Source: a virus (Duplodnaviria; Heunggongvirae; Uroviricota; Caudoviricetes). From it: a DNA stretch of 43,859 nucleotides. Both the position numbers and the translations under genes were made by a program. Position 1 is the stretch's first letter. Each line of letters opens with the position of its first letter. The notes beneath the pieces were generated by a model. That model ran no database searches. It was not told the origin of the DNA and saw only the letters and a list, made by a program, of their open reading frames with translations. The stretch spans positions 1 through 43,859 of IMG/VR virus record IMGVR_UViG_2908567220_000006; one strand, 5' to 3'. Shown one piece after another: positions 5,880 to 41,850 of this stretch.

Positions 5880-6695
5880 ATGAGCAGACATGCAACAGAT
5901 TGGGCCTGGGAGACAGATCCAGGTAGCTCATCATTAAAGCTCATACTGCTCTCGATGGCTGACAGAGCCGATGAATATAACCTCTGCTACCCCAGCATAG
6001 AACGCCTCGTTAAAGACACTTGCCTGAATAAAAAAACCGTGCAGGCCGGGCTTATATCGCTCATGAAAATGGGGCTTATTTCAGATACCGGAGATAGAAA
6101 GGGAGCGACAAAAAGAGTGCGGGTTTTCTCTCTTAATATAACCAAAAACGGGAACATTAAAGGCAACCGGGAAGGGGGTAATGAACCCGAAAACGGTAAT
6201 GTTACCGAAAACGGGAATATACCCAAAAACGGGATGTTGAATGATCCCAAAAACGGGATGTTGAATGATCCCAAAAACGGGATCCAGAACCAGTCATATA
6301 ACCAGTCATTTAACCAAGAGAGGGAGAGCAGGACAAAAAGCGGGGATTCTGTGCCTCATGACCCCGGCGCAAACAACGCCGTGATGAATAACTTTGTTCC
6401 TCCTGGTTGGCCAGGGCAATTAGGCAAATTTGTCATGCATGAACAATGGCAACCATCAGATGACTTTCTTCGGAAAAGCTCATTGCAGGGGATCTACCTG
6501 GACAGTCTGCCAACGGCACAGGAACTTGCAGAGTTCAGAATTTACTGGATGGCTGAGGGTAAGGCATACCATCAGGCACAGTGGGAGCAGAAGCTGGCAA
6601 GGAGGCTGCAGATTAGCAGACAGAAGCAATCAACATTACCTGATAACAACGTTCCGCACTGGAACAGCCCTGAAGCATGGGAGGATTTCTTGTGA
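5880..6695 (+). CDS. replication initiator (O-like; N-terminal winged-HTH, C-terminal DnaT-like domain)
   Basis: 271 aa; Asn/Gly-rich repetitive linker encoded by iteron-like DNA repeats; directly upstream of the P-like helicase loader. Confidence 0.7.
   Translation: MSRHATDWAWETDPGSSSLKLILLSMADRADEYNLCYPSIERLVKDTCLNKKTVQAGLISLMKMGLISDTGDRKGATKRVRVFSLNITKNGNIKGNREGGNEPENGNVTENGNIPKNGMLNDPKNGMLNDPKNGIQNQSYNQSFNQERESRTKSGDSVPHDPGANNAVMNNFVPPGWPGQLGKFVMHEQWQPSDDFLRKSSLQGIYLDSLPTAQELAEFRIYWMAEGKAYHQAQWEQKLARRLQISRQKQSTLPDNNVPHWNSPEAWEDFL
6140..6285. repeat. iteron array (putative replication origin) inside initiator gene
   Basis: Six copies of CC(C/G)AAAACGGGAA-like units spaced 18-24 bp, including a perfect tandem 24-bp duplication cccaaaaacgggatgttgaatgat at 6222-6269. 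Confidence 0.55.
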
Positions 6696-7477
6696 ACAAC
6701 GTTTTTACCGCGATACAAAACCGTGACGGAGAAGCCCTTTCTCGCATGTCAGGTTATGAGCATCAGTACACCAACAATGATAACGTGGTGAACATGTCAG
6801 CAGAGAGGCTTGTTGATGCCCTTTTCAAACAGCTGAAACAACTGTTTCCGGCGGCAGTGGTAACCAACCTGAAGACGCCAGAGCAGGAAGTTGCTGCAAA
6901 ACAGCAGTGGATTGCTGCGTTTGCCGAAGGGGGGATCCGAACCCGTGAACAGGTTTCTGCTGGTATGCGCCACGCCCGCGCCAGTGAATCTCCGTTCTGG
7001 CCGTCGCCTGGGCAATTCATCAAGTGGTGTAAAGACAGCAAGATGGTTCTTGGCGTCACCATTGACGATGTGATGGCGGAGTTTAACCGGTACAGCAAGG
7101 AAAAAAGTTTATATCCTGGTGGTCCCGAAAGATTCCCGTGGCGACATCCGGTTATGTACTGGGTCGTATGTGATACCCGCCGTGCAATGTATCAGCGCCA
7201 GCTTAGCGAGATTGAGGTTGAGAAACACGCGCGCAAGCTGCTCGATGATTGGGCGAAAAAGGTGGCTTCCGGACAGCAGATACCCGATCCGGTGATCAGC
7301 ATACAGGCAAAGCCAGAACCCATGAGTACACCTCCGGACACAGGGAGAGACGTTTACCATCCACCAGGGCGAAGTTTCGGGTGCATGCCTAACGCCGCCA
7401 CCCTTGGTGGAATAACACCGGCGCAGTGGCTGATGGAGGAATACAGGCGAGGAAAGGCGGCAGGATTTATCAAGTAA
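6692..7477 (+). CDS. replication protein P-like helicase loader
   Basis: Motif SPFWPSPGQFIKWCKD matches the recalled lambda P motif RPFLPSPGQFVAWCRE. GTG start at 6692 with GGGAGG SD preferred over the ORF-track ATG at 6677. Confidence 0.75.
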   Translation: MNNVFTAIQNRDGEALSRMSGYEHQYTNNDNVVNMSAERLVDALFKQLKQLFPAAVVTNLKTPEQEVAAKQQWIAAFAEGGIRTREQVSAGMRHARASESPFWPSPGQFIKWCKDSKMVLGVTIDDVMAEFNRYSKEKSLYPGGPERFPWRHPVMYWVVCDTRRAMYQRQLSEIEVEKHARKLLDDWAKKVASGQQIPDPVISIQAKPEPMSTPPDTGRDVYHPPGRSFGCMPNAATLGGITPAQWLMEEYRRGKAAGFIK

Positions 7478-7514
7478 TACCAGCGCGATAGCGCATTTTT
7501 TTACGCCTCGACAA

Positions 7515-7591
7515 TTACCTGTTAGGTAATAAAATATTCTAAAATCTATTGATTTCGTGTCTTATGTGGTTTTTAATTACCTTAGAGGTAA
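7515..7591. promoter_or_regulatory. two palindrome copies (7515-7529, 7577-7591) upstream of nin-like operon
   Basis: Perfect TTACC-N5-GGTAA copies; the second overlaps the Shine-Dalgarno of the gene starting at 7595. Confidence 0.5.
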
Positions 7592-7594
7592 ATC

Positions 7595-7939
7595 ATGAGA
7601 AAACAGATACAGGCTCTTGGTCGACTCAAAACAGGCCAGATGAACAAAACAGAATCTGCGTATTGCCAGCACCTTGAGCAGCGTAAACGTGCAGGGGAAG
7701 TCGCCTGGTATCGGTTCGAGGGTATCAAGCTGCGGCTGGCTGACAACACGTTTTATACGCCCGATTTCGCTGTGATGCTCGCCACCGGAGAGATGGAACT
7801 GCACGAAGTGAAAGGTTTCTGGACCGACGACGCCAGGGTGAAAATCAAAGTCGCCGCAGATCAGTATCCGTTCCGAATCATCGGGGTAACGGTTAAACCA
7901 AAGAAAGCAGGTGGTGGCTGGAAAATCGAAGAGTTCTGA
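7595..7939 (+). CDS. DUF1064-like phage protein (inferred)
   Basis: 114 aa; family assignment is from memory of the motif pattern, not a search. Confidence 0.45.
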   Translation: MRKQIQALGRLKTGQMNKTESAYCQHLEQRKRAGEVAWYRFEGIKLRLADNTFYTPDFAVMLATGEMELHEVKGFWTDDARVKIKVAADQYPFRIIGVTVKPKKAGGGWKIEEF

Positions 7940-8000
7940 ATCGACGATCTTTTTAGTTACCAATGTAATCAATAAGTTATGTGGATAAGCGAGGGTAAAG

Positions 8001-8579
8001 ATGGAAAGTAATATTAAAGGGTTAGTTTCCGCCGGGCATGAGATGGCTTCGGAACTGAAAGCAGAATGTGGTGCCGTTGATATGCGCAGTGTGGCAAAGC
8101 TGATCAGCGATTTGGCAACGCAACTGGAAGTGCAACTGGTGCGTGCTAATGTGCTGGCCGAAGACCACCAGAAAGCGATTGAGTCAATTAAGCAGGCTGA
8201 TGCGGCTGTTAAGTTTGCACACGAGAAGTTTTCAGCGCTGGCGGCGGAGAATGCGGGGCTGAAGTCTGGCGCTATGGACGAAATCAAGGTTATCAACCGT
8301 GGAGGGCAGGCATATTGCGTAAAAGATGGAGTGCAAGTTAATCCCATGTATGCAAGAGGGTGGAATGACTATCGCGCAAAGTCTCTGCAATCAGACACCC
8401 CAGCCACCGACTCTTTCCTGTCTGAAGTACGGGCGCAGGGGGTGGATATGGCTCGTAACGCGATGATTGATTTTGTTGATGGTGAAGTTGGGCCAAACAA
8501 GAACGTTCCGGGGCTGATTAGAGGCGCAGAGATATGCGTAAGTATTGCTGAACAGCTTCGCAAAGGAGGCAGCCAGTGA
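8001..8579 (+). CDS. hypothetical phage protein
   Basis: 192-aa ORF in a compact plus-strand operon. Confidence 0.5.
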   Translation: MESNIKGLVSAGHEMASELKAECGAVDMRSVAKLISDLATQLEVQLVRANVLAEDHQKAIESIKQADAAVKFAHEKFSALAAENAGLKSGAMDEIKVINRGGQAYCVKDGVQVNPMYARGWNDYRAKSLQSDTPATDSFLSEVRAQGVDMARNAMIDFVDGEVGPNKNVPGLIRGAEICVSIAEQLRKGGSQ

Positions 8580-9121
8580 GTGTAACGGTTGAAAAGATTG
8601 ATGTGTTGTCATTCGTTATAACCGGTGCAGAGCGACTAGATCCGGTTAGAGTGATGATTGAAAACTACGAACCCGGTAAGGGAAGAATCACCATCACCTG
8701 CTACGGAAAAGCGTGGACTGCGGCTTGGTTTGCTATGGGCGGTGATGATGTGCAGACGTTCATTAAGCGGGTCAGCAACGAGTATCTAATCGGCTATTTC
8801 GACCCACAACTGCGAAGCACTGTCGACGATGACAACGATGCAAATCTGCTTTTCGTGAAGTCAGAAATCATAAAGTTACGAAGAGAGAGAGAAATAGACG
8901 CCGTACTGGCTCGCGAAATGTGGGACGAGGCGGAAAACGCCGATGACGTAAAAGAAAGCTGCTGCTGTTTCGGCGTCGGTAACAAACTACTGAATCTCTT
9001 TGGTGATGATCCGTGGTATGCCGACTGGCCAACGGTACCAAACCCGAAATACCAGTATCTGGAACGCGTACTTAATGCAGTGAGAGACGGTCTTAAGCAA
9101 ATAGAGAAGGTGGAACCATGA
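8576..9121 (+). CDS. hypothetical phage protein
   Basis: 181 aa; start overlaps upstream stop. Confidence 0.5.
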   Translation: MSVTVEKIDVLSFVITGAERLDPVRVMIENYEPGKGRITITCYGKAWTAAWFAMGGDDVQTFIKRVSNEYLIGYFDPQLRSTVDDDNDANLLFVKSEIIKLRREREIDAVLAREMWDEAENADDVKESCCCFGVGNKLLNLFGDDPWYADWPTVPNPKYQYLERVLNAVRDGLKQIEKVEP

Positions 9122-9417
9122 CTGTATGTCTTATTGATAAACGTCGACGTGGGCAACAAATACCATCTGTTGAAATGCCGAATCACACATGGTTTTGCGT
9201 ACTTGATATCGATGGTATGGATGCGTTGGTTGACACTCGTCATTACTGCGATACCGCAACAGCTACTCCGGCGAAAGCAAAGAAAATGGCTGCTCTGATA
9301 GAAAACTGGACTCCACCTGATGGTTGGTGCAATGGGAATGATCGAGATTGGCACGAAAAAATTAAGGGCTATATCTGCGATTTTTTACGTAAATGCAACG
9401 GATTCAGGGTGATGTGA
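9118..9417 (+). CDS. hypothetical phage protein
   Basis: 99 aa; start overlaps upstream stop. Confidence 0.45.
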   Translation: MTVCLIDKRRRGQQIPSVEMPNHTWFCVLDIDGMDALVDTRHYCDTATATPAKAKKMAALIENWTPPDGWCNGNDRDWHEKIKGYICDFLRKCNGFRVM

Positions 9418-9480
9418 CATGAGCGAAATTGACTATCAGGCTTCAATTGCCGCAGGCATTCGCATCAAAGAAGGTGAGTA

Positions 9481-9657
9481 ATGCGTGCGGCATGTATCGG
9501 CTTGTTACCGTACCCGACTCGTTTTTGGGCTTCTGCGCTAATTGCAAAGCCACATGTCCTGATGGCTGACAACATCATCCCGGCACCAAAGCGCCGCCAT
9601 ACCGGTATTGCAGCGGCACGACGAGCAGCAAAGAGACGCAGGAGAGCAAAGCGATGA
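9481..9657 (+). CDS. small basic hypothetical protein (58 aa)
   Basis: Own translation MRAACIGLLPYPTRFW...RRAAKRRRRAKR; ATG overlaps stops on both sides. Confidence 0.3.
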   Translation: MRAACIGLLPYPTRFWASALIAKPHVLMADNIIPAPKRRHTGIAAARRAAKRRRRAKR

Positions 9658-9830
9658 AAAACCGTAAGGCAAAACGACTTTTTTTACAGCGACCTGTGCG
9701 TGTGGTGGAGCTGGTTATTAGCAACCATAAGATAGCGGTACTCCATCCATTTGGTCAGGTGGCTTTTGCCGCAAAGCGTAAGCCTACTGCGTCACAGAAC
9801 AGGCGGAAGAAAGGGTACGCAGTAAGATGA
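9654..9830 (+). CDS. small basic hypothetical protein (58 aa), paralog of next gene
   Basis: Own translation MKNRKAKRLFLQRPVRV...; shares the MKNRKAK N-terminus and start context with the gene at 9827. Confidence 0.35.
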   Translation: MKNRKAKRLFLQRPVRVVELVISNHKIAVLHPFGQVAFAAKRKPTASQNRRKKGYAVR

Positions 9831-10015
9831 AAAACCGTAAAGCAAAGATTCTGTTAGTTCGTAGAAACGCTCCTGGCGTCTGGCAGTGGGTGAGACTCAG
9901 CAACCGACGGATGGGGTTGATGAAATATTACGGGATGATGGATTGTGGTTTTTGCAAAAAGTCCAGCGCGGCGCAAAACCGCTGGAGAAACCATTTGCGC
10001 ACTAAAGGAGAGTGA
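9827..10015 (+). CDS. small basic hypothetical protein (62 aa)
   Basis: ORF-track protein MKNRKAKILLVRRNAPG...; ATGA overlap with the upstream paralog. Confidence 0.4.
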   Translation: MKNRKAKILLVRRNAPGVWQWVRLSNRRMGLMKYYGMMDCGFCKKSSAAQNRWRNHLRTKGE

Positions 10016-10017
10016 TA

Positions 10018-10226
10018 TGGCTATTGCCGCAAGTTACACCATGCATCTCTATTGTGACTGCCGCCAGTGTACGGAAGGTGTATATCCAGTGCCAGACTTC
10101 GGTGAGTATATCGGTACGTCATGGTCTGGTTGTGCAAAAGAGGCCCGTAAAGACGGGTGGCGAATAAGCAAAGACAAAACTCGTGCTTTTGCGCCAGGGC
10201 ATAAAGTTTTAAGGATTAACAAATGA
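10018..10226 (+). CDS. small Cys-rich hypothetical protein
   Basis: Start taken at MAIAASYTMHLYCDCRQC, which has a GGAG SD upstream. Confidence 0.45.
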
Positions 10227-11191
10227 CCACTATTACCAGAGAAAACGCGGAAATTAAATCATTCATCACTGGTTTCCTGAGCGACCCGGCGCACGATAAC
10301 CAATCTACAGACAGCCTGCTTGCCAATGTGTTTCGTATCGCACAGGCATCGCTGGAAGCAGAGCCTATTGGTGAAGTTTCAGAGAAGCGATATGGCCTTG
10401 TTATGGATGGAACGGTAGACCTTGGCGGGAAATCAACTTATCGCATCATTAAGGGAGAAAAAGCGATGAAGTTGTTGCCGTTGGGGACGAAGTTTTATAC
10501 CGCACCGCCAGCGCCGGTAATACAGGCTGATATCGCGCAAGCAATTGAAAACCTAAAGCAAAAGTTAGTGGAATGCAATCGCTATAACTACTGCGCAGAT
10601 GCAGTTAAAGGTGTTGAGGATGCCAGCCGCGTCTTGGCACTCCAATATCAAAATATGTCAACGCCGATAACGCCGGAGGCCATTGAAAACGCAATTGAAT
10701 ACATCCGCAGTATCGCTTTTCACATCGATGAAGACGATTACCACGGCAAGCATATTGCGTATTTCATGCGACAAGCACTGGCCTGGCTGGAAGGGCATTC
10801 ATGCAGCGACGACAGACTGGGTAAAGCCGAGAATCAAACAGTACACGGCAACCAGGCTGCCGAATCCAATCGCGGTAATGAGTGGACCGGCAATCCTGAT
10901 ATTGATAACGCAATCATCATGCTCGACCGCATAGATACGCTGGAAAGTTGCGATGATGACCGTATTGAGGCTGTTAAGGCTGTTTTGCGTAGACTGGCTG
11001 GCAACTCTCCGGTAACTCCGGATGGTTGGGTTATGGTGCCGAAGGAGTTAACCCCGGAAATGATGAGAGCCGTTCAGATTAGAAGTGAGCTTGGAGGGTA
11101 TGCCACTTCCAATCTATCTGGTGCATACAATATGTTTTCTGAGTTCTGGAATGTTGCTGTCTCAGCTGCGCCTAAGGTTGATGATTTATGA
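10223..11191 (+). CDS. hypothetical phage protein (322 aa)
   Basis: Long ORF in operon; no motif assigned. Confidence 0.55.
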   Translation: MTTITRENAEIKSFITGFLSDPAHDNQSTDSLLANVFRIAQASLEAEPIGEVSEKRYGLVMDGTVDLGGKSTYRIIKGEKAMKLLPLGTKFYTAPPAPVIQADIAQAIENLKQKLVECNRYNYCADAVKGVEDASRVLALQYQNMSTPITPEAIENAIEYIRSIAFHIDEDDYHGKHIAYFMRQALAWLEGHSCSDDRLGKAENQTVHGNQAAESNRGNEWTGNPDIDNAIIMLDRIDTLESCDDDRIEAVKAVLRRLAGNSPVTPDGWVMVPKELTPEMMRAVQIRSELGGYATSNLSGAYNMFSEFWNVAVSAAPKVDDL

Positions 11192-11490
11192 ATCTATATC
11201 GCTGCCCATTCTGTGGTTCCACTGTGCTTAACATCGGATACTCATTCAGTATCAGAGGGAAAATGCGCTATGTGTCATGCAAATGTGGTGCCCAAGGACC
11301 AGAAAAACGAACTAAATCTGAAGCGATTTCTTCATGGAATAGTCGAATGAAAGTATGGGTTTATGATCCAGAAACCATATTAAACGCTGAAGAGCGCAGG
11401 AGAACGGAAGTCTATATTCATAACCTTAATGAAGATGGATTTACACCAGTGCTTGTAAAGGCTACTCCGCAGGAGGTTAACCGTGGCTAA
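11188..11490 (+). CDS. Lar-family restriction-alleviation-like protein (zinc ribbon)
   Basis: N-terminal CPFCGS...CKC motif as in Lar-family proteins. Confidence 0.5.
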   Translation: MNLYRCPFCGSTVLNIGYSFSIRGKMRYVSCKCGAQGPEKRTKSEAISSWNSRMKVWVYDPETILNAEERRRTEVYIHNLNEDGFTPVLVKATPQEVNRG

Positions 11491-11764
11491 CCTTCAACTT
11501 GCCGTCAAAGGTGAATACTTCGATGCCATGATTCGAGGAGAGAAAACGGAAGAGTATCGCCTGTGTAATAACTATTGGAATAAGCGAATTATGTTCCGGG
11601 AGTATGACCGCCTGATTATCACAAAGGGATATCCGAAGCGTGACGATTCCAGCCGCAGAATTGACGTTCCGTATGGCGGCTATGAAATCAAGACAATCAC
11701 ACATCCGCACTTCGGCGATAAACCGGTAAAGGTGTACGCGATAAAGGTGAATATTGATGGCTAA
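11483..11764 (+). CDS. ASCH/PUA-like domain protein
   Basis: LAVKGEYFDAMIRGEKTEEYR pattern resembles ASCH-fold proteins. Confidence 0.45.
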   Translation: MANLQLAVKGEYFDAMIRGEKTEEYRLCNNYWNKRIMFREYDRLIITKGYPKRDDSSRRIDVPYGGYEIKTITHPHFGDKPVKVYAIKVNIDG

Positions 11765-12095
11765 ATCAGCAGCAGAGCGCAAAGCCGCTCAGAGAGCCAG
11801 ACAAGCTGCATCTGGTGTGCGTAAGCTGGAAATTGTGCTTGATGCTCAGGAAATTGAAATGCTGGAGCGTAACTGTGCCACGCGTCGCCCCGGGCGTGCG
11901 CCTTACGAATTTGGTGAGTATATAGCGTTACTGATCCGCCAGGATGATGCACGCGTGCGCGGGCGTATAAAATCGATCAGCAGAAAATGTTGCGGTAAGT
12001 GCGGCGAGAGAGTTCCAGTTAATTCATGCCCGTGTAATGGTGACTCGCAATGCTGGGTGACTAAAGGCTGGCATGAAACGAAATTAATAGTGTGA
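11754..12095 (+). CDS. Cys-rich hypothetical protein; candidate late-gene regulator
   Basis: C-terminal CCGKCG...CPCNGDSQC cluster; last gene before a terminator and the terminase operon. Regulator role is inference from position only. Confidence 0.45.
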   Translation: MMAKSAAERKAAQRARQAASGVRKLEIVLDAQEIEMLERNCATRRPGRAPYEFGEYIALLIRQDDARVRGRIKSISRKCCGKCGERVPVNSCPCNGDSQCWVTKGWHETKLIV

Positions 12096-12144
12096 CATGT
12101 CACGAGTAGATTATGCATGATGAATTTGATGGGTTTTGAATACT

Positions 12145-12170
12145 GCCGCCAACTATGGCGGCTTTATTTT
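12145..12170 (+). terminator. intrinsic terminator upstream of terminase operon
   Basis: GCCGCC-AACTAT-GGCGGC hairpin followed by TTTATTTT. Confidence 0.5.
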
Positions 12171-12181
12171 GCATGGTACTA

Positions 12182-12214
12182 TTACCACAACGGTAACTAT
12201 TACCACGGTGGTTA
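12182..12214. promoter_or_regulatory. palindrome pair immediately upstream of small terminase start
   Basis: 12182-12196 perfect TTACCacaacGGTAA; 12200-12214 TTACCacggtGGTTA overlapping the SD. Confidence 0.5.
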
Positions 12215-12216
12215 TG

Positions 12217-12810
12217 ATGCCTGCTGAACCTAAAACCTATAAACGCAAATCAACGCAATTTAAGCCACTAACAGCAATGCAGGAGGCTTATTGCCAGTCA
12301 TACATCAAAACGCCTGAAAACCAGACTCAGGCAGCGATTAACGCAGGATTCTCCCCAAATACAGCGGCAGTTAAAGCCAGTGTCATGATGCGCGATGAAC
12401 GCATTCAAAAACGGATTGCCGAGTTGATGGAGGAGCGCAACAAACGAATGCGCGTCAGTGCTGATTACGTTCTCATGCGCCTGGTGGAGATCGACCAGAT
12501 GGACGTGATCGACATCCTCAACGACGATGGGAGCCTTAAACCAATCCGTGAGTGGCCGAAAATCTGGCGCACTACGCTTAGTGGCTTTGATCTGTCATCG
12601 ACCATCATGAACATGAACGAGGATTCGATAGAGACAATCCTCAAAAAAATTAAATGGCCTGACAAGGTGAAGAACCTTGAGCTGATTGGTAAGCATGTTG
12701 ATGTCAACGCGTTCAAAGAACGTCTGGATGTTAATGTGAATGTGACAATTGCTGATCGCATAGCAGCAGCCAGGAAGCGACTCAAAGAACGTCAGGATGG
12801 TAATCAGTGA
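12217..12810 (+). CDS. terminase small subunit
   Basis: Start at MMPAEP with GGTGG SD; about 197 aa, directly upstream of and overlapping the large terminase. The ORF-track start at 12136 would read through the operator copies. Confidence 0.7.
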   Translation: MPAEPKTYKRKSTQFKPLTAMQEAYCQSYIKTPENQTQAAINAGFSPNTAAVKASVMMRDERIQKRIAELMEERNKRMRVSADYVLMRLVEIDQMDVIDILNDDGSLKPIREWPKIWRTTLSGFDLSSTIMNMNEDSIETILKKIKWPDKVKNLELIGKHVDVNAFKERLDVNVNVTIADRIAAARKRLKERQDGNQ

Positions 12811-39618: not shown

Positions 39619-40809
39619 ATGTTGACTGACACCAGGCTGCGTCACCTTAAGCCGAAGGAGAAACTCTATAAAGTTAATGACCGTGATGGTCTGTATGTTG
39701 CGGTCACTCCGGCTGGAACTATTTCATTTCGTTATAACTATTCAATAAACGGAAGACAGGAGACTGTTACTTTTGGCCGCTATGGTGTTGGAGGGATCAC
39801 GCTTGCAGAAGCGCGTGAACGGCTCAATGAAGCCAAAAAAATGGTTGCCAGTGGAATATCGCCTGCGAGGGAAAAAGCCAGAGATAAAGCGCGTATTAAA
39901 GATGCGGAGACTTTTGGTGCGTGGACTGAGAAATGGTTACGCGGTTATCAAATGGCTGAATCGACGCGTGATATGCGGCGTTCGGTATATCAAAGGGAGT
40001 TGAAGTCAAAATTTGCCCAGCAGAAACTTAGTGAGATTACACATGAAGACTTACGCGCATTAACCGATAACATTGTCGAGAGAGGGGCACCAGCGACAGC
40101 TGTACACGCTAGAGAGATTGTATTGCAAGTCTATCGCTGGGCTATTGAGCGCGGTCAGAAGGTGGAGAATCCTGCTGATCTGGTACGGCCTGCAAGCATA
40201 GCGAAATTTGAGCCTCGAGACAGGGCATTGACGCCAGTTGAAATTGGTCTGATGTATCGGTACATGGAACGGGTAGGAACGACGCCATCAATCAGAGCAG
40301 CGGTTAAACTTTTGCTGTTAACGATGGTACGTAAAAGTGAGCTTACTAACGCAACCTGGAACGAGATCAATTTTAGTGAGGCATTATGGACGATACCAAA
40401 GGAAAGGATGAAACGACGTAATCCACATTTGGTTTTTCTTTCCAGACAGGCAATGGATATTATGATTGCTCTCAAAACCTTTGCCGGTAGCTCTGATTTT
40501 ATCCTTCCTTCGCGGTACGATTCCGATGCGCCAATGAGTAGCGCTACTTTAAACCGGGTTTTGACACTGACGTATCGCCTGGCTCAGAAAGAAGGGGAGT
40601 TGTTGCCTAAGTTTGGTCCCCATGACTTACGGCGTACAGCCAGCACCTTGCTACATGAGGCCGGGTACAATACTGACTGGATTGAGAAGAGCCTTGCCCA
40701 TGAACAAAAAGGGGTACGAGCTGTTTATAACAAGGCAGAATATCGTGAGCAGAGGGCTGAGATGCTACAAGATTGGGCGAATATGATTGATGAATGGACT
40801 AGTAAGTAG
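39619..40809 (+). CDS. int: tyrosine integrase (P4-type)
   Basis: 396 aa; P4-like N-terminal arm-binding region (LYKVNDRDGLYVAVTPAGTISFRYNYSINGRQ) and C-terminal catalytic region (HDLRRTAST...Y). Confidence 0.85.
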   Translation: MLTDTRLRHLKPKEKLYKVNDRDGLYVAVTPAGTISFRYNYSINGRQETVTFGRYGVGGITLAEARERLNEAKKMVASGISPAREKARDKARIKDAETFGAWTEKWLRGYQMAESTRDMRRSVYQRELKSKFAQQKLSEITHEDLRALTDNIVERGAPATAVHAREIVLQVYRWAIERGQKVENPADLVRPASIAKFEPRDRALTPVEIGLMYRYMERVGTTPSIRAAVKLLLLTMVRKSELTNATWNEINFSEALWTIPKERMKRRNPHLVFLSRQAMDIMIALKTFAGSSDFILPSRYDSDAPMSSATLNRVLTLTYRLAQKEGELLPKFGPHDLRRTASTLLHEAGYNTDWIEKSLAHEQKGVRAVYNKAEYREQRAEMLQDWANMIDEWTSK

Positions 40810-40944: not shown

Positions 40945-41850
40945 CTATATTTCCAGACATCTGTTATCACTTAACCCATTACAAGCCCGCTGCCGCAGAT
41001 ATTCCCGTGGCGAGCGATAACCCAGCGCACTATGCGGATGCCATTCGTTATAATGCTCGAACGCCTCTGCAAGGTTCTTTGCTGCCGTTAACCCGTCTGG
41101 TTTGGGCATGATACTGATGTAGTCACGCTTTATCGTTTTCACGAAGCTCTCTGCTATTCCGTTACTCTCCGGACTCCGCACCGCCGTGTTCTTCGGTTCA
41201 AGTCCCAACATCCGGGCGAACTGGCGTGTTTCATTAGCCCGGTAGCATGAACCATTATCCGTCAGCCACTCCACTGGAGACGACGGAAGATCGTTGCCGA
41301 AGCGGCGTTCCACCGCTCCCAGCATGACGTCCTGTACTGTTTCACTGTTGAAGCCGCCGGTAGTGACCGCCCAGTGCAGTGCCTCACGATCACAGCAGTC
41401 CAGCGCGAACGTGACACGCAGTCTCTCTCCGTTATCACAGCAGAACTCGAACCCGTCAGAGCACCATCGCTGATTGCTTTCTTTCACGGCCACTCTGCCT
41501 GTATGTGCCCGTTTCGATGGCGGTACAGCAGGTTTTCGCTCAAGCAACAGCGCATTCTGGCGCATGATCCGGTAAACACGTTTGGCATTGATCGCAGGCA
41601 TACCATCAAGTTCTGCCTGTCTGCGAAGCAGCGCCCATACCCGACGATAACCATACGTGGGCAGCTCTCCGATAACATGGTGTATACGGAGAAGCACATC
41701 CGTATCATCAGTGTGACGACTGCGGCGGCCATCCATCCAGTCATCGGTTCGTCTGAGAATGACGTGCAACTGCGCACGCGACACCCGGAGACAACGGCTG
41801 ACTAAGCTTACTCCCCATCCCCGGGCAATAAGGGCGCGTGCGCTATCCAC
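40945..41850 (-). CDS. insD: IS2 transposase OrfB (InsD)
   Basis: 301 aa, recognised as IS2 OrfB from memory; expressed by frameshift from OrfA. Confidence 0.85.

Follow-up and report, generated by a model that had tools for sequence, protein, structure and literature searches.

In this study, we find that a chain of five micro-ORFs in a phiV10/epsilon15-like (Uetakevirus) E. coli prophage, the 43,859-nt stretch of DNA analysed here (the window), comprises four apparently genuine protein-coding accessory genes of this temperate phage, o2, o3, o4 and o5, preceded by o1, which reads as an in-frame deletion scar of a ~229-aa ead/Ea22-like gene. Moreover, o3 and o4, which both begin with MKNRKAK, are true paralogs. 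We hold with moderate confidence the joint reading in which o2 to o5 are real genes, o3 and o4 an old tandem, o1 a scar and the operon translationally coupled, and in which o2, o3 and o4 are putative nucleic-acid binders. The five ORFs are as follows.

9419-9481, + strand: o1, 20 aa, MSEIDYQASIAAGIRIKEGE, acidic with a net charge of -2
9481-9657, + strand: o2, 58 aa, net charge +14, pI 12.0, phrog_13831
9654-9830, + strand: o3, 58 aa, net charge +15, pI 12.0; first tandem copy ("o3-type"), ending in …SQNRRKKGYAVR
9827-10015, + strand: o4, 62 aa, net charge +14, pI 11.5; second copy, of the canonical type, ending in SAAQNRW(K/R)NHLRTKGE
10017-10226, + strand: o5, 69 aa, net charge +4, pI 9.0, phrog_926

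Operon context and the Ea22-like scar

All five ORFs of the original prediction are present, only the start of the fifth needing correction, from 10018, which would be read out of frame, to 10017. They occupy the middle of a run of 12 genes (8001-12095) between the replication genes and a terminator, in which their neighbours include a DUF7739 gene, a gene for a 322-aa protein with relatives that carry a DUF551 annotation in other phages, and a Lar-like gene. The features that frame the chain are listed below.

5880-6692: DnaT-like/HTH_36 replication gene, upstream of the ORF chain
6677-7474: homolog of lambda P, a replication gene, upstream of the ORF chain
7508-7535: promoter-like site
8001-12095, + strand: early accessory operon holding the chain; its 12 genes are spaced by -11 to +1 nt in the junction table
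11188-11490: Lar-like restriction-alleviation gene (PF14354, E 7.8e-9; phrog_599), in the same operon, three genes 3' of the chain
12145-12162, + strand: terminator, the only strong and convincing one on the + strand

The geometry of this operon is that of coupled translation. At all junctions from 8576 to 11754 the gap is -11 to +1 nt and the Shine-Dalgarno (SD) site lies inside the upstream gene, with SD energies of -4.0 to -11.6 kcal/mol across the operon junctions, and ribosomes would terminate and re-initiate from gene to gene along it. Dense packing is a property of the whole operon and is not specific to o1-o5. The linkage by ATGA or TAATG overlaps that had been proposed for the entire chain holds at o1/o2 (TAATG), o2/o3 and o3/o4 (both ATGA, which is found again between o5 and the next gene), but o4 and o5 do not overlap, being separated by a 1-nt spacer (TGAtATG). 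The SD sites are strong for o3 (AGGAGA, -7.4 kcal/mol) and o5 (AAGGAG, -9.1 kcal/mol), and weak for o1 (-4.2 kcal/mol) and, in its tandem context, for o4 (-4.5 kcal/mol). In single-copy relatives, the MKNRKAK gene is served by the strong AGGAGA site that o3 uses in the window. Because of this, and because the o4 site is weak, o4 is probably the more dependent on coupling of the pair: in the tandem state the strong site would pass to o3, leaving o4 to lean more on ATGA termination-reinitiation.

The earlier placing of the chain in a nin-like region is borne out by position and not by gene content. The chain stands 3' of the DnaT-like and lambda-P genes and 5' of the terminator and the terminase genes, and this region is the positional equivalent of the lambda nin region. 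Its genes, as judged from homologs, correspond to those of the Stx-phage exo-xis/ea accessory region and not to nin genes. Matching accessory genes are found in Stx phages between ea22 and xis (933W, VT2-Sakai, Min27), in phiV10 (p49-p52) and in P1-like phage-plasmids such as RCS47 and D6.

Over most of its first 25 kb, the window is ~97% identical to PAS61, phiv142-3 and TL-2011b. Within the 5880-6692 gene there are six iteron-like direct repeats of ~24 nt (core CCCAAAAACGGGA, spaced by 18-45 nt, window positions 6134-6286), which are probably the phage replication origin; the lambda ori sits inside gene O. At 39619-40806 lies a phage integrase with arm-binding, central and catalytic domains, and after it, on the opposite strand, an IS3-type transposase (rve/HTH_21) at 40948-41850. 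This arrangement suggests that the window is an integrated prophage, with an IS element next to its attachment end.

The first ORF had been counted as one of the five genes of the chain, a status that alignment does not uphold. In a related locus (L030), a 229-aa ead/Ea22-like ORF (MTKINYQALREA…AAGIRINGGE*) stands between the DUF7739 gene and o2, its stop codon overlapping the o2 start. The 5' end of this ORF is matched by window positions 9405-9441 and its 3' end by ~9446-9481, which argues that o1 arose by an in-frame internal deletion that retained the Ea22-like start region and the stop/TAATG junction to o2. The homology of relatives to the window begins at 9446-9449. The phages phiV10 and RCS47 keep the upstream Ea22-like gene intact, whereas the window keeps only the 20-codon scar. 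With only ~8 N-terminal and ~11 C-terminal codons left, o1 was rejected as a member of the ead/Ea22-like family (PF13935/DUF550 context) and is treated here as a remnant; it has no Pfam match. The exact DUF7739-o1-o2 junction of the window occurs in 0 of 5426 complete E. coli genomes.

Scars of this kind nevertheless seem to recur or to move between phages. In the E. coli ECOR29 chromosome (L085, 1501-1560), a 19-codon micro-ORF near-identical to o1, VSEINYQASIAAGIRIKGE, comes after a DUF977 gene, in a prophage setting unrelated to that of the window, its GTG start overlapping the upstream stop. At least two more of the listed genomes (H66, H67) also have a near-identical micro-ORF after a DUF977 gene, and two tiny PHROGs (37408 and 19884) match o1 or its near-identical micro-ORF. 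We assume that the o1 scar persists because the relay and the o2 SD site would both stay intact. In this respect o1 cleanly illustrates how a deletion scar can leave operon packing undisturbed.

The tandem MKNRKAK genes

That two adjacent, strongly basic genes share the same start was correctly seen in the first place. The 20-nt sequence ATGAAAAACCGTAA(G/A)GCAAA is present at 9654 and 9827 and nowhere else in the window, while dinucleotide-preserving shuffles lead one to expect 0, and the products carry net charges of +15 and +14. By BLASTP, o3 and o4 are 37% identical (E 1e-8). Both belong to phrog_1380 (a 62-position profile annotated as unknown function), o3 over positions 1-58 (E 6.5e-23) and o4 over 1-62 (E 5.7e-39), and we regard the two as true paralogs on these similarities.

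The family to which they belong is small. It comprises 38 clusters in a database of 5.8 billion proteins and 41 representatives in a library of 1.8 billion proteins, essentially all from Escherichia, Shigella or Salmonella elements, and it appears to be restricted to enterobacterial phages. A protein scan of 185,579 species-representative genomes gave a single family match, on a 427-bp contig of Xanthomonas pisi DSM 18956 (contig_257; L092) with 94% identity to the o4 C-terminus, which is most likely enterobacterial contamination of the assembly; a degenerate pattern for AAQNRWKNH had 0 matches in the species-representative genomes. In an alignment of 27 o3/o4 family sequences reaching down to ~26% identity (A3), positions N3 R4 K5 A6, S25 N26, K45 and Q50 N51 R52 are near-invariant, corresponding to the family motifs NRKAK, SNR(R/K) and QNR, while residues ~29 to 44 are hypervariable. 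Across diverged members, the first seven codons differ by synonymous changes only (CGT/CGC, AAG/AAA, GCA/GCT/GCC, AAA/AAG), which argues that MKNRKAK is constrained as protein.

The proposal of a local duplication followed by divergence can be accepted as far as paralogy is concerned, but the event is not local to this genome. The junction between first and second copy, …GGGTACGCAGTAAGATGA, is also present in phiV10 and RCS47, and in HEMP4 with two changes (…GTGCGATGA); in TL-2011b the same two copies abut. Whether relatives carry one copy or two had been put forward as a check, and both states occur: among 83 related loci (80 IMG/VR contigs plus RCS47, phiV10 and 933W), 38 have o2-o3-o4 and 44 have o4 alone. 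On a wider scale, the family is found in 146 phage records and the o3-type in 16, and in complete E. coli genomes the o4 body is present in 428/5426 and the o3 body in 150/5426. These distributions point to an old, polymorphic duplication kept in a minority of carriers, the single copy being the norm.

It seems that the two states interconvert through the gene starts themselves. The o3 presence/absence indel is bounded exactly by the 20-nt repeat (9654-9673 and 9827-9846), and o3 would be gained or lost by homologous recombination between the identical 20-nt starts. The same edges suit an explanation in which the tandem never arose by duplication in situ and was instead assembled by unequal recombination, through the 20-nt start, between divergent single-copy alleles of two phages. 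The region is indeed a mosaic hotspot and bodies have been shuffled between positions, as shown by phiV10 p50, an o4-like body with a first-copy tail, which argues that gene bodies were exchanged. However, the first copies of the window, phiV10, RCS47 and HEMP4 share both the junction and the tail …SQNRR(K/E)KGYAVR*, while last or single copies end in SAAQNRWKNHLRTKGE* followed by the SD of the next gene; no single-copy gene examined in detail has the first-copy tail, which is also carried by P0047 and P0050, two members without known context. The common tail and junction argue for one founding event followed by shuffling. We thus consider the assembly from two phages rather unlikely, while noting that the two scenarios are not cleanly separable, and we take the tandem as probably the product of one founding duplication.

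A less likely alternative, and one that we doubt, is that o3 is a duplicate of o4 that has lost its function, is on the way to becoming a pseudogene and persists as a mere passenger, so that only o4 matters. It would account for the absence of o3 from about half of the close relatives and from most family-carrying phage records, and for its frequent lack of annotation in RefSeq. Where o3 is present it is nearly invariant, which fits a recent spread: the protein is 100% identical in most related loci carrying it, including every architecture example listed, and a few alleles have 1-3 nonsynonymous differences. Against decay, diverged o3-type members exist (P0047, P0050, P0053 and the HEMP4 first copy, at 64% identity) in which the complete ORF, both motifs (ISNHK and SQNRR) and the terminal YAVR are retained, and they suggest that the o3-type forms a separate, diverged subfamily. 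Moreover, 9 of the 15 o3 variants are synonymous (P 3e-3), with no such bias in the other frames, and the stronger SD site of the pair belongs to o3. We therefore keep to the reading of o3 as a gene in its own right.

Coding evidence and predicted properties of the products

The expectation that the frames would be kept in related phages is confirmed, as every copy of o2-o5 in the 83 related loci is an intact ORF. Against neutral synonymous fractions of 0.20-0.26 (0.26 for o2), synonymous variants account for 15/31 in o2 (P 7e-3), 8/18 in o4 (P 1.4e-2) and 30/50 in o5 (P 2e-9; pS ~0.35, pN ~0.055). Together with that of o3, this excess is confined to the named frame and is found in neither of the two alternative frames. 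For o2-o4 the apparent purifying selection is modest and comes from few variants. That conservation instead acts on DNA or RNA (recombination boundaries, a structured RNA or protein-binding repeats), the ORFs being incidental, would suit the almost identical nucleotides of the 20-nt starts, the recombination hotspot and the differing starts between gene callers, but it is highly improbable given the restriction of the synonymous excess to the named frames, the purely synonymous variation of the MKNRKAK codons across diverged members, the lack of any Rfam match (E up to 1) in window positions 7000-12500 and the protein motifs kept at 40-50% identity in unrelated contexts (Sasha, Av-05, D6).

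With o2-o5 taken as coding, the pattern of their exchange is that of the mosaic accessory regions of tailed phages. Breakpoints of homology among relatives coincide with gene boundaries (9446-9449, 9673/9826, 10021 and 10242), which suggests that each gene is an independently assorting module. Parts of the proteins would tolerate drastic change, as indicated by compensated frameshifts through the variable middle of o4 (P0037, P0038, P0046) and by the common frameshifted o2 tail (P0184, and P0187 on 95 contigs). The cassette also appears to be especially prone to small deletions. In P0056 the N-half of o3 is fused to o5, and in P0031 that of o4 is fused to a DUF4014 protein.

None of o2-o5 has sequence or profile similarity to a characterised family in searches of Pfam and NCBIfam, which assign no family to any of them. 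When o2-o5 and the genes around them were compared with PADLOC, no match was obtained at E up to 0.1, and its models describe defence, not anti-defence, systems. For the o3/o4 family, no A3 member matched a Pfam family, and neither o4 nor the A3 profile found anything significant among PDB chain sequences. The only usable structural model came from AlphaFold2 (AF2) run with the 27-sequence A3 alignment, since a 9-sequence alignment gave a meaningless long helix (pLDDT 68, pTM 0.25). In that model (pLDDT 81.5, pTM 0.50), o4 is predicted to have the topology a1-b1-b2-b3-a2, with helices at residues 4-12 and 48-60 and strands at 20-23, 28-32 and 38-43. Fold searches with this predicted alpha-beta3-alpha fold returned no match to a solved structure. 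Two candidate relationships were rejected. An AP2 or integrase N-terminal (Int-N) three-stranded-sheet fold for o3/o4 shows no significant structural or profile similarity. A C2H2 zinc finger in o4 gave a sub-threshold zf-C2H2_jaz match (E 0.059, 14 bits versus a cut-off of 22.6), and o4 is not considered a zinc finger because the cysteines C40 and C43 are replaced in most homologs (GSGFS, VMCSLN, AFAAK), a single His being the only one present.

By itself, a high positive charge says little about function. Taken with the invariant residues of the o3/o4 family, which are only Asn, Arg, Lys and Gln, and with the predicted alpha-beta3-alpha scaffold, a net charge of +14 to +15 on ~60 residues makes it most likely that o2, o3 and o4 bind nucleic acid, either RNA or DNA. 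The arginine-rich motifs of lambdoid N proteins are very small, extremely positive and nucleic-acid-binding. The likeness of the present proteins to binders of this type lies in their tiny size, charge and early operon expression, and in the Arg/Lys clusters of the o2 tail and of both ends of o3 and o4. They differ in that the prediction for o3 and o4 is a folded domain of alpha-beta3-alpha type, not a short induced-fit peptide.

The second ORF is a family apart. It has full-length similarity to phrog_13831 (annotated as unknown function; E 1.2e-40, 1-58 of 58) and 85 homolog clusters, almost all from Escherichia (alignment A6). It combines a conserved, hydrophobic, Pro-containing N-half with an Arg-rich tail (KRRHTGIAAARRAAKRRRRAKR), and hhalign found no relationship between o2 and the o3/o4 family. 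Its start codon is GTG in L030.

With regard to o5, the evidence points to a different kind of protein. It matches phrog_926 (also annotated as unknown function) over its full length (E 9.2e-37, 1-69 of 69) and has homologs in Escherichia, Salmonella, Lelliottia, Kosakonia and Pantoea. Across 14 diverse homologs (alignment A5), the pattern Y-C-D-C-x2-C is invariant and P-x-H-K nearly so, with C13, C15 and C18 invariant and H62 present in at least 90%. These residues suggest a Cys3His metal site, and o5 is probably a small Cys3His metal-binding protein. No A5 member has a Pfam relative, and neither o5 nor the A5 profile gave a significant match among PDB chain sequences. An obligatory pairing of o4 with o5 was rejected, o5 being missing beside the family member in Sasha, Av-05, PhiR12_2 and HEMP4. 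It would probably act as a separate small zinc-binding partner or module.

At the level of physiology, the early operon, the presence/absence polymorphism and the Lar-like gene suggest a dispensable host-modulating or counter-defence role. The o2-o4 products are probably dispensable proteins that, in the early phase of infection or induction, modulate host or phage gene expression or host defence. A more far-reaching version would make the MKNRKAK family an undescribed nucleic-acid-binding fold peculiar to enterobacterial phages, alpha-beta3-alpha with three invariant Asn-Arg motifs, with an o3/o4 heterodimer, possibly joined by o2 and o5, that early in infection reprograms host gene expression or counters a host defence, and with the hypervariable beta2-beta3 segment caught in an arms race; we think it improbable.

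Relation to known phage cassettes

The closest counterparts of the chain are in phiV10 (PhiV10p49-p52; NC_007804) and RCS47 (FO818745/NC_042128), which have, like the window and in the same order, o2, a first and a second MKNRKAK copy and o5, and share its junction sequences. Over window positions 9449-10242 the identity of RCS47 is 96%, and its o3 protein is 100% identical. In contrast, the bodies of the two phiV10 copies are 63% and 55% identical to o4. The GenBank record of phiV10 already notes that p51 resembles p50, so that the paralogy of o3 and o4 is real and already recorded in public annotation.

The exo-xis/ea region of Stx phages (933W, VT2-Sakai, Min27, phi24B) carries homologs of o2, o4 and o5 with 83-95% protein identity, in an early, non-essential region 3' of an Ea22-like gene. 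The site of the cassette differs, being in a rightward operon after the replication genes in the window and between exo and xis in Stx phages. One of the Stx phages read in detail, 933W (L003), carries one MKNRKAK copy and lacks o3, and of the 16 phage records in which an o3-type copy occurs, only two are Stx2c-converting phages. Genes of the Stx exo-xis region influence the lysis-lysogeny decision (PMC3824215, PMC8614690), and Stx phages harbor extra genes and duplications (PMC8614690). None of the exo-xis genes that have been studied (orf60a, orf63, orf61, orf73, ea22 and ea8.5) is homologous to o2-o5, which are not treated in the exo-xis papers examined, and the literature searched holds no mention of MKNRKAK, PhiV10p50 or VT2-Sap08.

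Genes of 58-62 codons are easily missed or given a wrong start in annotation. In the RefSeq record of RCS47 (NC_042128; L001) o2 and o4 are unannotated, as they are in 933W, where L0068 corresponds to o5 over-extended upstream into o4; the o3 body is without a feature in several E. coli RefSeq plasmids (H124, H125, H127). Many public phages already have the cassette annotated, as hypothetical proteins, and it is common in E. coli phages.

The cassette is ordinary phage accessory "dark matter", and its well-defined small family could merit experimental follow-up. The MKNRKAK family is present in ~8% of complete E. coli genomes, including their Stx phages and P1-like phage-plasmids. Nothing here indicates as yet that a tiny basic protein of this family is a host-takeover or anti-defence factor; if that were true, it would bear on the biology of Shiga-toxin phages.
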